Below, piece after piece: positions 9,076-18,019 of a stretch of DNA of 64,000 nucleotides. Within the stretch, counting starts at the first letter, position 1. Each line of letters begins with the position of its first letter. Made by a program: the position numbers and the translations under genes. Origin of the DNA: Escherichia phage UP19; the sequence record OX638288. One strand, 5' to 3'. Below the pieces are notes generated by a model that saw only the letters and a program-made list of their open reading frames with translations, was not told the DNA's origin and ran no database searches.

Positions 9076-9080
9076 GTTAT

Positions 9081-9104
9081 GGGACTCTTCGGAGTCCCAT
9101 TTTT
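9081..9104 (+). terminator. rho-independent terminator (GGGACTC-TTCG-GAGTCCC + T-run)
   Basis: 7-bp perfect stem, TTCG loop, TTTTT at 9100-9104. Confidence 0.8.
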
Positions 9105-10012: not shown

Positions 10013-10300
10013 ATGTTTATGACCACTTATTTCGATACTCGTAAAAATTTCTGTGAAGTTGTTTTCTCTAAGGCAGGTAAAGATGTTCCTGCTGACAAAC
10101 AGCCTACTCGTGAATCCATTAAGGCCTATGCTGATGTGGTTTGTCCAGTAGAATTCCGTACAGTCAATGGTCGTGACACCCTAGCAATCACTAAGCTCAA
10201 CCGCGATATTAACATCGACCCAAGTGTCGCCCGCGAAGTCAATACTTCTGACATCTACGGCGGTAATGTTAAATCACATGGATTTCAGATGAGGTTCTAA
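10013..10300 (+). CDS. hypothetical protein
   Basis: 95-aa ORF from ATG 10013 with SD GAGG; the track's earlier start at 9980 lies inside the terminator hairpin. Confidence 0.5.
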   Translation: MFMTTYFDTRKNFCEVVFSKAGKDVPADKQPTRESIKAYADVVCPVEFRTVNGRDTLAITKLNRDINIDPSVAREVNTSDIYGGNVKSHGFQMRF

Positions 10301-10494
10301 TGCAACTATTCTTATCACAAACCGTTCAGTTAAAAGGTATAGGTATTCCTGGTATGATTTCAAAGGTTCTACCTGCTTTTAAAATTAACGGTAAAGTAAT
10401 TAAAGAAGCCTATGCAGTCCTGTGGGTCGACGGAACTGAAGACGTGCGCATGGGTTCTGAATTGTCTGTAATCAAATGTTTGAAGCGAGGATAA
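10300..10494 (+). CDS. hypothetical protein
   Basis: 64-aa ORF, coupled. Confidence 0.4.
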   Translation: MQLFLSQTVQLKGIGIPGMISKVLPAFKINGKVIKEAYAVLWVDGTEDVRMGSELSVIKCLKRG

Positions 10495-10495
10495 T

Positions 10496-10711
10496 ATGGT
10501 CAAGAAACTGATTCAGAAATTGTTAGGTACGGAAATGGTTGAAGTGACTTATCGTGTGACTGATGTTTCTCCTCATACGGCGGACCATTTAGAACCTTAT
10601 ATCATGACAATTAAAATGCCTAAACATGACGGTGGTTTATCCATTGAAGACCGACTGCCTGGTTATGGTTATTGGGCTGATGTCGAAATTATAAGTGTCA
10701 AAGATGTCTGA
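10496..10711 (+). CDS. hypothetical protein
   Basis: 71-aa ORF. Confidence 0.4.
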   Translation: MVKKLIQKLLGTEMVEVTYRVTDVSPHTADHLEPYIMTIKMPKHDGGLSIEDRLPGYGYWADVEIISVKDV

Positions 10712-11162
10712 GTTAGAAATTAGAAGTAACTTTCCGTGGCCATCATGCGCATTAAGTAACTTTGCTAAATGGCCATTCGTTATGGATGGTATCCAATTTG
10801 GTGGACTCGAAGGATTCCTCCAAGGGTGTAAGGTGAAAAATGTTGAACAACAAAGACGTATATTTAGGATGTCCGGGTTAGACGCGCAAAAAGCTGGACG
10901 AGCTTATGCTAGGGCTCAGGACCGTGGCACGTTGTTCTGGCTTGGGACCCCGTTTTCAAGATATTCCGAAGCATGGAAAGAGCTTTACGAAAGTGCGTAT
11001 TTTGAAGCAGCACTCCAGAACAAAGGATTCCGAGAAGCTTTACAAGCCACTAAAGGTAAGGTTTTAAAGCATTCAATGGCAAGCCACCTCAAAGAATGTG
11101 ATACAATACTAACTGAAAAAGAGTTTATCGACATCCTAAACAAATTGAGAGATTTATTATGA
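10695..11162 (+). CDS. NADAR / YbiA-like (DUF1768) domain protein; putative ADP-ribose or N-glycoside hydrolase
   Basis: 155 aa; motif ..LSNFAKWPFVMDGIQFGGLEGFLQGCK.. resembles the YbiA/NADAR signature (FSNFxxWP...SEHyFQAxK) as I recall it; no profile search run. Confidence 0.45.
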   Translation: MSKMSELEIRSNFPWPSCALSNFAKWPFVMDGIQFGGLEGFLQGCKVKNVEQQRRIFRMSGLDAQKAGRAYARAQDRGTLFWLGTPFSRYSEAWKELYESAYFEAALQNKGFREALQATKGKVLKHSMASHLKECDTILTEKEFIDILNKLRDLL

Positions 11163-11797
11163 AACCAGTTATCTTAACAGATATCGATGGAGTATGTTTA
11201 AGTTGGCAGTCCGGCTTGCCTTATTTCGCACAGAAATATAATTTGCCTTTAGAACATATTTTGAATATGATTCAGGACGAACGTTTCTTATCTCCAGGCG
11301 AACTGTTTAATTGTGACGACGAATTAGGCGCACGTTTAATCGAGAAATATAACCAGTCAGATTTTATTCGTTATCTGTCACCTTACATGGACGCATTAAA
11401 ACACATCAACAAGCTCAAAAAAGACTTCGATTTTGTAGCTGTGACTGCGCTAGGTGACTCAATCGATGCTCTGCTGAATAGACAATTCAATTTGAATGCT
11501 TTGTTCCCTGGCGCATTCAAGGAGATTCTGATGTGTGGTCATTCAGAATCAAAAGAAGACCTGTTCATAAGAGCTAAAAATACGTACGGCAAACGCATTA
11601 AGTTTTATGTTGATGATTTGGCCCACCACTGTGATGCCGCATCTAATATTCTCATGGATATCCAAGTCTATTGGTTAGCCCGTGGTGAACGCGACTTTAA
11701 ACCTAATTTAGCTGTAAAGGTTAATTCATGGGACGATATTGCAGCTATAGAATCCCTTCGTAATAATGCGGCCGTTGAATGGATTGCACGAGGTTAA
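11159..11797 (+). CDS. HAD-superfamily hydrolase (phosphatase/nucleotidase-like)
   Basis: 212 aa; N-terminal HAD motif I ..ILTDIDGV..; C-terminal acidic ..YVDD..; ATGA-coupled to the NADAR-like ORF. Confidence 0.55.
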   Translation: MKPVILTDIDGVCLSWQSGLPYFAQKYNLPLEHILNMIQDERFLSPGELFNCDDELGARLIEKYNQSDFIRYLSPYMDALKHINKLKKDFDFVAVTALGDSIDALLNRQFNLNALFPGAFKEILMCGHSESKEDLFIRAKNTYGKRIKFYVDDLAHHCDAASNILMDIQVYWLARGERDFKPNLAVKVNSWDDIAAIESLRNNAAVEWIARG

Positions 11798-11798
11798 T

Positions 11799-12062
11799 AT
11801 GTTTGTTGTTCATACAATTACTGACGGAACCCCTAAATCCCATGATTACGGAAACGTTAGACAATTCCTTCGATTGAACCCTGTATATTTCCAAGCCAAA
11901 GATGAAGATATCTTTATCCAATGTGTTCGGCGTGGATTTATGTATGTTACTGAATATGATATTAAAGATAAGCGTATTATTTCGTATCACAAAACTTTAA
12001 ATGAGCTTTTAGATGAAGTAGCTTATAATAGAAGTACACAAACTGTAAGGACGGTAAAATGA
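11799..12062 (+). CDS. hypothetical protein
   Basis: 87-aa ORF from ATG 11799 with SD GAGG. Confidence 0.45.
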   Translation: MFVVHTITDGTPKSHDYGNVRQFLRLNPVYFQAKDEDIFIQCVRRGFMYVTEYDIKDKRIISYHKTLNELLDEVAYNRSTQTVRTVK

Positions 12063-13582
12063 TTTTAGATATTTTGAACGAAATTGCGGCTATCGATTCT
12101 ACTAAAGCTAAAGAAGCTATTATTGCTCGTGAAAAGGATAACGAGCTTCTGAAACGTGTTTATCGTATGGCTTATACTCGTCGTCTGAACTACGGTATTA
12201 AAAAGTGGCCAGAACCTGGATTTACGTCTCAATCCTTTGGTATGATTACACTTGAAGACCTTCTTGATTTCGCTGAGTTCACACTAGCCACCCGTAAGAT
12301 TACAGGTAATGCGGCTATTGAAGAACTTGCCCAAATTATTGCAGATGCTAAGGGTCCAGACGCTGAGGTACTACGTCGTGTAATGATGCGCGACCTTGAA
12401 TGTGGCGCATCGATTTCTATTGCTAACAAGGTTTGGAAAGGTTTAATCCCTGAACAACCTCAAATGTTGGCTAGTTCTTATGACGAAGCTTTGATTAAGA
12501 AAAATATTAAATGGCCTGCGTTCGCCCAATTAAAAGCTGACGGTGCCCGTTGTTTTGCTGAAGTTCGTAACGATGGCGTAACATTCCTTACTCGTGGTGG
12601 TAATGAATACCAAGGGCTTAATCTTTTGGCTGCTGAATTAATGGCTATGACCGAAGAAGCTAGACAGCGCCATCCTAATGGTGTTATGATTGACGGCGAA
12701 TTAGTTTACCACACTCCTAAAGTAGAACCTAAAGCGTCTAATGATTTGTTTAGTATGTTTGATGAGGAACTTCCTGAATTAAGTAAAGCCAAGGAATTCC
12801 AAACTGTCGCCGATCGTTCTACTTCAAACGGGCTAGCTAACAAGGCTCTTCAAGGAACTATTACTCCAACCGAAGCCGCAGGTATGGTATTACAGGCGTG
12901 GGATTATGTCCCATTGGATGTCGTATATTCCGAAGGTAAAATTAAAGGCGATAAGTATGATGTACGCTTTGCAGCCTTAGAACTTATGGTTGCTCATAAT
13001 GTCGTATTGCATGGTACAACTCGTGTTGAAGCTATCGAAAACCAGTGGGTTAATAATCTTGACGAAGCTAAAGTCGTTTATAAGAAATATGTCGACCAAG
13101 GCCTGGAAGGTATTATCCTTAAGAACATGGACTCCTACTGGGAAAACCGCCGTTCTAAGAATCTTATCAAGTTCAAAGAAGTAATCGATATCGCTTTAGA
13201 AGTGGTAGGTTATTATGAACACTCTAAAGACCCAAACAAACTTGGTGGTGTCGAGCTAGTATCGCGGTGTCGTCGAATTACATCTGATTGTGGTTCAGGC
13301 TTTAAAGATACCACCCATAAGAAAGATAAATCAGGTAAAAAGGTATTGATTCCATTAGAAGACCGCCCTGATTTAGACCGTGAACTTCTTATGAAACAAG
13401 CTCGTGAAGGTAAGTTGATTGGACGTATTGCTGACTGTGAATGTAATGGTTGGGTTCATTCTAAAGGACGTACTGATACTGTAGGTATTTTCCTTCCAAT
13501 TATTAAAGGTTGGCGTTTCGATAAAACTGAAGCTGATACATTTGAAGATGTATTTAGTGATTGGTCTCAAACTGGACTATAA
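12059..13582 (+). CDS. 30: ATP-dependent DNA ligase (gene 30)
   Basis: 507 aa; N-terminus MILDILNEIAAIDSTKAKEAII..; ligase motif I ..LKADGAR..; matches T4 gp30. Confidence 0.95.
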   Translation: MILDILNEIAAIDSTKAKEAIIAREKDNELLKRVYRMAYTRRLNYGIKKWPEPGFTSQSFGMITLEDLLDFAEFTLATRKITGNAAIEELAQIIADAKGPDAEVLRRVMMRDLECGASISIANKVWKGLIPEQPQMLASSYDEALIKKNIKWPAFAQLKADGARCFAEVRNDGVTFLTRGGNEYQGLNLLAAELMAMTEEARQRHPNGVMIDGELVYHTPKVEPKASNDLFSMFDEELPELSKAKEFQTVADRSTSNGLANKALQGTITPTEAAGMVLQAWDYVPLDVVYSEGKIKGDKYDVRFAALELMVAHNVVLHGTTRVEAIENQWVNNLDEAKVVYKKYVDQGLEGIILKNMDSYWENRRSKNLIKFKEVIDIALEVVGYYEHSKDPNKLGGVELVSRCRRITSDCGSGFKDTTHKKDKSGKKVLIPLEDRPDLDRELLMKQAREGKLIGRIADCECNGWVHSKGRTDTVGIFLPIIKGWRFDKTEADTFEDVFSDWSQTGL

Positions 13583-15895: not shown

Positions 15896-18019
15896 ATGGA
15901 AAATTTAAACGAGGTTTTTGATAGTGATTCCGCTAAAAACTATCCAGTAACAAATCTTAAACCAGGTTCCGGTATTCCACAGATTTTCTCTATCCAAGCA
16001 CCAGGTAATGATAATCTGGTTGCTCGTATGGTATCTTATGCGTCTCAAGGAGACGCTATTAAAATGGTTAAGCCTGGCGACAAATACGTTCATGTTATTT
16101 TGATGAGTTTGTCTAGCAAGGGTGCTCCGGCTGAACTCAAAGGTGGCCTTGGTTCTGACCCACTTGGTACACTGAATACTATTTTCGATACTGTATACGA
16201 ACAAGTAAACAAACTTAAAATGGATGCAGTTTTGTTCCGTTTCCCTACCAAGAAAATGAAAGGTAAGGGTCCTACCGTTCAGCGTGTATTAGCTCGTTTG
16301 GTGATGGCACGTACCGGTGGTAAGTTTAAAGTTGTCGATGATATGTTCCAGTTTAGTGGTAAACATACATACGTTCTTTTAGTACGTCGTGGTTCTAATA
16401 TCGAAGATATCAAGGGTATGCCTGAAATTGATGCCGATCTTTATACCAAGGTTGAGTCTAAAGTTGGCGAAGTTTATGTTTCTAAGAAAACAGGCCAGGC
16501 CGTAAGTAAGGTCGAAGCCGTAGCGGCATCTATCGCCCAGGTTGAAGAAAAACGTACCGATAAGGCTGTCATCTCTCGTACTAAGATTTCCCGTCGTATG
16601 GCTGCAGCAGCGCAGTATTCTACTTCCGAACCTGAAACTTTATCCCCTAAAGAATTGCAGGTTTATAATGAGTTTGAAGCTTCTGTACCTGTTCATTCGG
16701 CTGAAGGTCCTGAGAACGAAGGTATTGAACAGATTAGCCAGAACTTTAAAAAAGGTGCTATTACTAAAATGCGTCAGGCCTCTCAGTTTAAATCTAAGAG
16801 TGAGGACCTTGCCAACTTTAGATACACCATTGCTCTCACGCACGCTTTAATGACTGATAGTAAATTTAAACTAAATTATGCTAATAGAGATAAACAAGGG
16901 TTTGAAATTTACTCTAATAATATGGCATTTTTTAATACAGAAGTCGATAGACTTTTAAGTGGCCTTTCTCAAATCAATACTACCAATAGTCTGGATATTA
17001 TTAAGAGAATTGTTAATAACCTGAGCGCCCGTTTTCAGGGATCTCCTTCAGAGAAAGCATCCCGAATTGCTTTCGCTATGGAAGCCGTTTATAAACTGAT
17101 TAACGATTCTATTGGCGATGCGTATGCTTATTCAGGTGAGCTCATTAAACCTAAGGGCTTGACTAAAGACGAAAGCAATGCTATTATTGAATATTGCGCA
17201 GCTGAATATGCTCCTATGAACTTATTCCTTTTAGGTAAACCTGAATCCGAAAACAATACAACGGCTATTAAATTGATTAAGGATTTAGACTCAGCATTTA
17301 CTAAGGGTATTAAACTCCCTAAGGGTACTATTTTGTATCGTGGTCAGGATTTGCCATACAAAATTCTGCGTCATAATATCGATAACAAAACATTTTACTT
17401 TAAGAACTTTGTGTCAGCCTCATTAAAGCCTAACATCTTTGGTGAATTCGGTAAAAATTATATGGCCCTCGACAACCAAGCCGTTTTTGTTGGTGGTGAA
17501 GGTTCTTTATCCTCCGCTGATGAGTTGTTTAAATTGGCTAGTGGTAGTTCATCTGATGTGGGTGAAGTCGATGACGAAGAGGTAGAATGGGAAGAAGACG
17601 AGTTTGGTAATCCAATTGCACCTGAAGGCCCTGCAGACAGGATTGCTGAAATCGGTATGGTTATTCGAGGTGCTGAAGCAGTTAAAGTTATCGCTCCTGG
17701 CGACCTTACAGAATATGCTGAAGAAGCAGAAATTATCCTTCCGCGTGGATTATTGATGAAGGTTGATAAAGTAGCGGCTTTTGCTATGAATGATAGGGTA
17801 TCTCACAAATACCTTATGGAAGCTACAGTGACGTCTCCTTCAGAACTCAGTGAATCCGTTTACGATGGCGACCATCTGATGGAAACTGGCGAAGTTAAAT
17901 TGATGAATGGGTTTAAAGAATTCCTAGTTTCAGAATCTGTTTCAGAAAGTAATGAGGCTATGGAAATCCTTGCTGCATCTTTGGACATCTCTTCTTTATC
18001 AAATAAATTCAAAATGTAG
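15896..18019 (+). CDS. Alt-type ADP-ribosyltransferase, paralog 2
   Basis: 707 aa; N-terminal 150 aa closely similar to paralog 1, divergent middle, R-S-E signature retained (..YRGQD.. / ..VSASL.. / ..EIILPRGL..). Confidence 0.85.
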   Translation: MENLNEVFDSDSAKNYPVTNLKPGSGIPQIFSIQAPGNDNLVARMVSYASQGDAIKMVKPGDKYVHVILMSLSSKGAPAELKGGLGSDPLGTLNTIFDTVYEQVNKLKMDAVLFRFPTKKMKGKGPTVQRVLARLVMARTGGKFKVVDDMFQFSGKHTYVLLVRRGSNIEDIKGMPEIDADLYTKVESKVGEVYVSKKTGQAVSKVEAVAASIAQVEEKRTDKAVISRTKISRRMAAAAQYSTSEPETLSPKELQVYNEFEASVPVHSAEGPENEGIEQISQNFKKGAITKMRQASQFKSKSEDLANFRYTIALTHALMTDSKFKLNYANRDKQGFEIYSNNMAFFNTEVDRLLSGLSQINTTNSLDIIKRIVNNLSARFQGSPSEKASRIAFAMEAVYKLINDSIGDAYAYSGELIKPKGLTKDESNAIIEYCAAEYAPMNLFLLGKPESENNTTAIKLIKDLDSAFTKGIKLPKGTILYRGQDLPYKILRHNIDNKTFYFKNFVSASLKPNIFGEFGKNYMALDNQAVFVGGEGSLSSADELFKLASGSSSDVGEVDDEEVEWEEDEFGNPIAPEGPADRIAEIGMVIRGAEAVKVIAPGDLTEYAEEAEIILPRGLLMKVDKVAAFAMNDRVSHKYLMEATVTSPSELSESVYDGDHLMETGEVKLMNGFKEFLVSESVSESNEAMEILAASLDISSLSNKFKM

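Follow-up and report, generated by a model that had tools for sequence, protein, structure and literature searches.

Two genes that share four bases in the genome of Escherichia phage UP19 (sequence record OX638288) raise the question of what each of them encodes and whether their products work together. An earlier note, made from the sequence, had described the first as a NADAR (YbiA)-like hydrolase and the second as a HAD-superfamily phosphatase, upstream of the DNA ligase and Alt ADP-ribosyltransferase genes. It had read their ATGA junction as a sign of co-expression and had offered counter-defence, self-immunity or regulation of ADP-ribosylation as the possible purpose of the pair. Here we present an analysis of this pair in its surroundings, the window being the whole stretch of 64,000 nucleotides of UP19 DNA that was analysed. 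Both open reading frames exist as described, one of 155 residues counted from a GTG (10695..11162) and one of 212 residues (11159..11797); the ATGA junction between them is real, and the ligase and Alt genes do follow downstream (Table 1).

In a DNA comparison, positions 10300-12100 matched Escherichia phage JS98 and its relatives at ~97% identity; the phage that hosts both genes is a JS98-like T-even phage (Dhakavirus, Tevenvirinae). According to the JS98 and T4 annotations, the gene run reads 30.9 ... 30.4, 30.3, 30.2, 30.1, 30 (DNA ligase), alt.1, alt. The start of 30.3, hereafter adfN, is almost certainly the ATG at 10704, not the GTG at 10695, judging from sequence comparison, because the T4 and JS98 annotations agree on it and residues 1-152 align with T4 gp30.3 without a gap; the reading frame of the earlier note thus stands, with a product of 152 rather than 155 residues. 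Both proteins are encoded at 100% identity in an unannotated GenBank record, PQ561418.1 ('phage Ec2-ASingh', 63,988 bp), despite a match of only 96.7% to our 1.8-kb DNA query.

Table 1. Features of the 30.4-to-alt region of phage UP19, in window coordinates.
Feature	Position	Strand	Basis
Gene 30.4 ortholog, 71 aa	10496..10711	+	phrog_2042; JS98 annotation; stop overlaps adfN start by 8 bases
In-frame GTG-initiated extension, probably not translated	10695..10703	+	Annotated start in T4 and JS98, and start of all homologs, is the ATG (MSELEIRS...)
adfN (gene 30.3 ortholog), predicted NADAR-family DNA ADP-ribosylglycohydrolase, 152 aa	10704..11162	+	PF08010; T4 gp30.3 identity; fold; function from T4 ortholog (PMC11257639)
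ATGA stop/start overlap, 30.3/30.2	11159..11162	+	Sequence; same 4-base overlap in T4 and JS98
Gene 30.2 ortholog, predicted HAD-superfamily phosphatase with helical C1-type cap, NT5C-like, 212 aa	11159..11797	+	Motifs D8xD10, T96, K132, D152-D153
Gene 30.1 ortholog (DUF3045), between HAD gene and ligase	11799..12062	+	Pfam PF11243, E 2.4e-20; JS98 annotation
Gene 30, ATP-dependent DNA ligase	12059..13582	+	JS98 and T4 annotation
Alt-type ADP-ribosyltransferase paralogs, tandem pair, 695 and 707 aa	13805..15892, 15896..18019	+	JS98 annotation 'alta'

The first gene encodes a NADAR-superfamily enzyme. Its product matched Pfam family PF08010 (Phage_30_3) over profile positions 2-138 of 138 (219 bits, cutoff 36) and is 85% identical to T4 gp30.3/AdfN over all 152 residues. 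For both proteins of the pair, single-sequence searches of the PDB gave marginal matches only, so that family profiles and a fold search were needed. YbiA was found in the PDB at E=0.77 by single-sequence phmmer and at E=0.006 with the family profile, and the phmmer alignment laid LSNFAKWP...EGFLQGCK of the window protein onto FSNFAAWP...EHYFQAQK of YbiA; the family profile reached YbiA through this same motif. The resemblance that the earlier note had pointed out is therefore real, and weak if taken alone. Of the 58 aligned family members, 13 match the profile PF08719 (NADAR; best 1.5e-7), and the window protein itself has no match to it. The predicted fold confirmed the NADAR assignment. An AlphaFold2 model (pLDDT 93.4) had as its best three Foldseek matches in the PDB YbiA (2b3w; E 1.5e-5, TM 0.67), the Phytophthora enzyme PnNADAR (8bau) and the Geobacter (G. 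lovleyi) NADAR (8bat), all of them NADARs, with every remaining match at E>2. Furthermore, E36, K43 and H123 are all kept in the window protein and invariant in an alignment of 58 homologs, H123 coming directly after a predicted strand at residues 120-122. Searches against NCBIfam and PADLOC yielded nothing useful, PADLOC having no match for adfN.

What such a protein does has been worked out in T4, and both the NADAR identity and the anti-DarT role are already known, having been published in 2023-2025. NADARs were defined as guanine-ADP-ribose hydrolases by Schuller et al. in 2023 (PMC11543638), and at the third catalytic position phage NADARs have His, BC4488 has Asp and YbiA has Glu (PMC11543638, PMC11125620). 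Cihlova et al. found in 2024 that the T4 gp30.3 protein is active in vitro (PMC11125620), where it hydrolyses guanine-linked ADP-ribose on DNA (PMC11125620, PMC11257639). [quoted passage not shown] Deletion of adfN from T4 or T2 sensitised these phages ~10^4-fold, and the E36A and K43A substitutions abolished AdfN function; RB69, whose gp30.3 has lost its final 15 residues through a frameshift, is DarTG1-sensitive and was rescued by ectopic AdfN (PMC11257639). Transposon sequencing of T4 under DarTG1 gave the same picture, with 30.3 at a log2FC of -7.25 and q=0 (HIDEN-SEQ preprint, 10.1101/2025.11.20.689424). The suggestion of a counter-defence against DarT-type systems has thus been established experimentally for the T4 ortholog (PMC11257639; 10.1101/2025.11.20.689424). 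In contrast, the statement that the pairing is not characterised in T4 no longer stands for its NADAR half, on which there is bioinformatic, biochemical and genetic work. No functional work on gp30.2 was found in the literature on gp30.2, on 30.1/30.2/30.3 in T4 or on HAD nucleotidases in T4-like phages; AdfN comes up only briefly in the NARP3 paper, which does not deal with HAD enzymes.

The copy in the window is a functional-looking ortholog of this anti-defence enzyme, since it is full length and has all catalytic residues; the gapless T4 alignment runs to residue 152, so that the C-terminal 15 residues are present. With 85% identity, the three catalytic residues and the C-terminus conserved, we infer its mechanism in UP19 from that of the T4 protein. 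As the Dhakavirus ortholog of T4 AdfN, it would be made during infection as a stand-alone NADAR, would hydrolyse the N-glycosidic bond that joins ADP-ribose to guanines of the phage DNA, and would so undo the modification made by the host DarT1 toxin, allowing replication to proceed in DarTG1-carrying bacteria. It would be, in effect, an orphan antitoxin. In keeping with the description of AdfN, the gene is an orphan antitoxin-like one: no DarT1 toxin gene adjoins adfN, whose neighbours are 30.4 and 30.2.

Several further features of this gene deserve mention. Within adfN, in another frame, lies an ORF of 53 codons (10906-11067, +) whose product is 49% identical to the annotated T4 internal gene 30.3'; its conservation may simply be a consequence of the conserved adfN sequence that it overlaps. 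PF08010 is fused to PF11097 in some database proteins. Shortened gp30.3 variants of 126, 109, 91 and 89 residues are found in the databases in several phages, e.g. SV76, UGJNEcP4 and NR1; this suggests, on sequence grounds, recurrent decay of adfN, as in RB69, and phages with such variants are predicted to be DarTG1-sensitive. Additionally, T4 30.4 was depleted under DarTG1 (log2FC -1.79, adjusted p 0.014; 10.1101/2025.11.20.689424); since this gene overlaps the adfN start by 8 bases, the effect is probably polar, and a real contribution of 30.4 is possible.

The second gene encodes a HAD-superfamily protein, as the earlier note had proposed from its DIDGV motif, and motifs II to IV are present as well. 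Motif I of the 212-residue protein, which belongs to phrog_420, reads D8-I-D10-G-V, with the predicted nucleophile D8, the predicted general acid/base D10 and G11 all invariant. At the positions of motifs I-IV, the 59 homologs show no change at D8, D10, K132, D152 or D153 and keep T96 in at least 90% of cases, and D8, D10, K132 and D153 remain invariant once marine T4-like relatives (~25% identity) are added. An Asp at the second position after the nucleophile of HAD motif I marks phosphotransferases. The confident model (pLDDT 93.3) shows a Rossmannoid HAD core that bears a helical cap. This cap is inserted between the first two strands and comprises ~70 residues after motif I, with helices between residues 16 and 86; W16, N65, D78, R108, N111 and F120 are the invariant residues associated with it. 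No curated model passed its threshold with the gp30.2 ortholog, and NCBIfam gave no match. The window protein itself stayed below the threshold of the NT5C family (PF06941), with 12.9 bits where 24.8 are required (E=0.1), and 29 of the 59 members of the extended family matched it at E<=0.01 (best 3.8e-10). Profile matches of the extended family in the PDB were mainly nucleotidases: the mitochondrial and cytosolic 5'(3')-deoxyribonucleotidases, XMP phosphatase and SDT1. The earlier note had reasoned that a known deoxynucleotidase would speak against a link with ADP-ribose, and this came out halfway, in that the closest characterised relatives are 5'(3')-deoxyribonucleotidases and the family itself is not a characterised enzyme. 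The protein is thus related to NT5C, its membership of that family not being demonstrated.

On these grounds gp30.2 is most likely an NT5C-like, capped, small-molecule HAD phosphatase, and most likely a nucleotidase. It would act as a Mg2+-dependent phosphomonoesterase with a capped active site and would likely dephosphorylate a small molecule; the NT5C affinity points to a (deoxy)nucleoside monophosphate as the most likely substrate class. Many of its homologs have 270-300 residues, against 212 in the window, and in one metagenomic homolog of 302 residues (P0012) the DUF3045 (gp30.1) domain is fused to the HAD domain.

Members of the family are found in ~1400 phage genomes as well as in marine viruses of the T4-like type, and its cap is strongly conserved and distinctive. 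The HIDEN-SEQ tables show no phenotype of T4 30.2 on K-12, under DarTG1, or in LB versus M9 (10.1101/2025.11.20.689424). One unlikely reading is that gp30.2 is an unrecognised phage enzyme whose substrate derives from a nucleotide and bears on host immunity or on the product of AdfN, the role of gp30.2 being masked in standard laboratory hosts; that substrate could be an ADP-ribose-derived metabolite, a nucleotide used in signalling, or a non-canonical dNMP that, if left in place, would contaminate the synthesis of hydroxymethyl-C DNA. A subtle accessory role alongside AdfN strikes us as quite unlikely.

The stronger form of such a link, in which the two genes make up a two-enzyme module, is very doubtful. 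AdfN would free ADP-ribose from DNA, gp30.2 would dephosphorylate ADP-ribose or a breakdown product (ribose-5-phosphate, AMP) for disposal or to block re-use, and coupling through the ATGA would keep the two in proportion. That the overlap is kept in T4, JS98 and the window favours this, as does the neighbourhood of the two genes elsewhere: among 80 NADAR-seeded loci, 21 have a HAD gene downstream (14 abutting), with order and strand the same in all 21 loci that carry both, and for bacterial systems it has been suggested that an ADP-ribosylglycohydrolase can be coupled to a phosphatase (PMC9503650). The same survey, however, found no HAD gene in the other 59 loci. Seeding on the HAD gene instead, a gp30.3-type NADAR lay within 4 kb in 12 of 27 T4-like viral loci (6 abutting), leaving 15 without, and in none of 53 marine loci. 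In some genomes the genes are tens of kb apart, as in two IMG/VR phage genomes (~58 kb) and in Yersinia phage TG1 (~50-58 kb). Co-occurrence at genome level is close (1437 versus 1510 phage records, with host genera matching), which could be counted in favour of a module; any pair of broadly conserved genes of T4-like phages would, however, be expected to show it.

The junction itself is generic. The + strand of the window has 7 ATGA junctions, 8 TAATG junctions and 2 eight-base overlaps among ORFs of at least 60 residues, and seven consecutive junctions from 30.6 to alt.1, including those flanking the unrelated DNA ligase gene, have spacings of -8 to +1 bases. Translational coupling through the ATGA was considered as a sign of co-function and rejected, as junctions of this type abound in the genome. 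A scan for promoters and terminators turned up nothing convincing between 30.3 and 30.2 or immediately before them, promoter-like sites being scarcer than in shuffled sequence, and thus added nothing beyond the co-orientation of the two genes. Further upstream, directly after the 30.9 ORF, a strong terminator-like hairpin (9079-9100, +; 9-bp stem, TTCG loop, T-run) may be the upstream limit of a transcription unit that spans 30.8 through ligase. Against a module stand also the affinities of the HAD sequence, which are with deoxyribonucleotidases, and the behaviour of T4 under DarTG1, where insertions in 30.3 are lost and those in 30.2 are neutral (log2FC -0.12, q=1; 10.1101/2025.11.20.689424). 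With generic junctions, adjacency confined to a subset of T4-like phages and this neutrality, co-function as read from the ATGA junction is not supported, and we take the pairing to be synteny, not pathway. We picture 30.3 and 30.2 as gap-free syntenic neighbours in the tightly spaced run from 30.6 to alt.1 that would not form a two-step pathway.

The most constant neighbour of the HAD gene is another one. In 26 of the 27 T4-like loci the DNA ligase gene lies 0.6-2.1 kb downstream, and an Alt homolog follows in 24 of the 27 (L002-L028); set against 12 of 27 for the NADAR, this makes HAD-(30.1)-ligase the conserved block. One could also picture gp30.2 as a DNA-end 3'-phosphatase that heals ends before the ligase seals them, in the manner of the phosphatase domain of T4 polynucleotide kinase, itself a HAD domain; this idea, too, we rate as very unlikely. 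A helical cap is typical of HAD enzymes that act on small molecules, those acting on macromolecules being capless, and the model of gp30.2 has such a cap, of ~70 residues; Pnkp aligns to the core only (~125 residues), and the sequence affinities are with NT5C nucleotidases. T4-like genomes are broadly syntenic, hence adjacency to the ligase is weak evidence, and at the 53 marine homolog loci the ligase is absent from the vicinity. These marine contigs (L029-L081) carry distant HAD genes of the gp30.2 family (~25% identity) amid T4-like core genes, with neither NADAR nor ligase close by in any of the 53; their neighbours include PhoH-like, clamp-loader gp44-like and gp31-like co-chaperonin genes, as judged from representative sequences and not from a family search.

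Alt and Mod modify arginine in proteins, a linkage other than guanine-ADP-ribose. That the NADAR protects the phage from its own Alt/ModA/ModB ADP-ribosyltransferases, or tunes them, is extremely improbable: two Alt paralogs do follow adfN at a distance of 2.6 kb and in the same orientation, yet T4 30.3 is dispensable on K-12 without DarTG1 (27 of 28 TA sites hit) with Alt, ModA and ModB all present, carries no cost in LB versus M9, and alt insertions are neutral under DarTG1 (log2FC -0.01; 10.1101/2025.11.20.689424), while the NADARs assayed hydrolyse guanine-ADP-ribose in DNA and not thymidine-ADP-ribose (PMC11125620). From this dispensability and this specificity it follows that the self-immunity or regulation proposed in the earlier note is not supported. 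The tandem Alt paralogs of the window are 41% identical, with 3 bases between them; T4 has one full alt gene and the duplication remnants alt.-1 and alt.-2.

We thus return to the explanation that we hold with good confidence for the locus as a whole, in which adfN encodes an anti-DarT1 NADAR, 30.2 encodes a nucleotidase-like phosphatase, and the pair are neighbours only. The gene deserves the name adfN, being still a 'hypothetical protein' in JS98-type records. With an intact copy, the phage is predicted to resist DarTG1-type defence; because truncated (RB69-like) copies leave a phage sensitive, the state of adfN should be useful for host-range prediction and for the selection of phages for therapy. 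The gp30.2 family, a widespread, well-folded and nucleotidase-like predicted HAD phosphatase, is a reasonable if ordinary target for enzymology and of modest interest.

Among known systems, T4 gp30.3 is the nearest to the first gene, with the same length of 152 residues, 85% gapless identity, E36/K43/H123 and an intact C-terminus. Its slot is also the same, with 30.4 overlapping by 8 bases upstream and 30.2 by the ATGA downstream. The two proteins differ by 23 substitutions, mostly outside the conserved motifs, and the present copy belongs to a Dhakavirus, against the Tequatrovirus T4, and is known here from its sequence. With the DarG1 or BC4488-type NADAR antitoxins of DarTG1 and the YbiA-type NADARs (PF08719; 2b3w, 8bau, 8bat) the adfN product shares the fold and the Glu and Lys pair, and presumably the hydrolysis of guanine-ADP-ribose in DNA, as carried out by its T4 ortholog (PMC11543638, PMC11125620). 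Unlike them, it is an orphan without a DarT partner, has His at the third catalytic position, and is shorter, without N-terminal extensions.

For the second gene, the closest characterised systems are the cdN/mdN 5'(3')-deoxyribonucleotidases (PF06941, NT5C; PDB 2jao, 1mh9, 1q92), which likewise have a HAD core with a helical cap and a DxDGV motif I and which, at the level of sequence, are the best PDB and Pfam relatives of the gp30.2 family. The invariant W16 of gp30.2 aligns with the cdN/mdN Phe eight residues past the nucleophile, a residue that stacks on the nucleobase in those enzymes. In contrast to these enzymes, gp30.2 is a predicted nucleotidase only, with ~15-18% identity to them, a score below the Pfam threshold and other cap residues. 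Finally, the uncharacterised T4 gp30.2 (278 residues, phrog_420) is 75% identical to the window protein over 194 residues and occupies the same slot between 30.3 and 30.1, whereas the window protein, with its 212 residues, is without the C-terminal tail.
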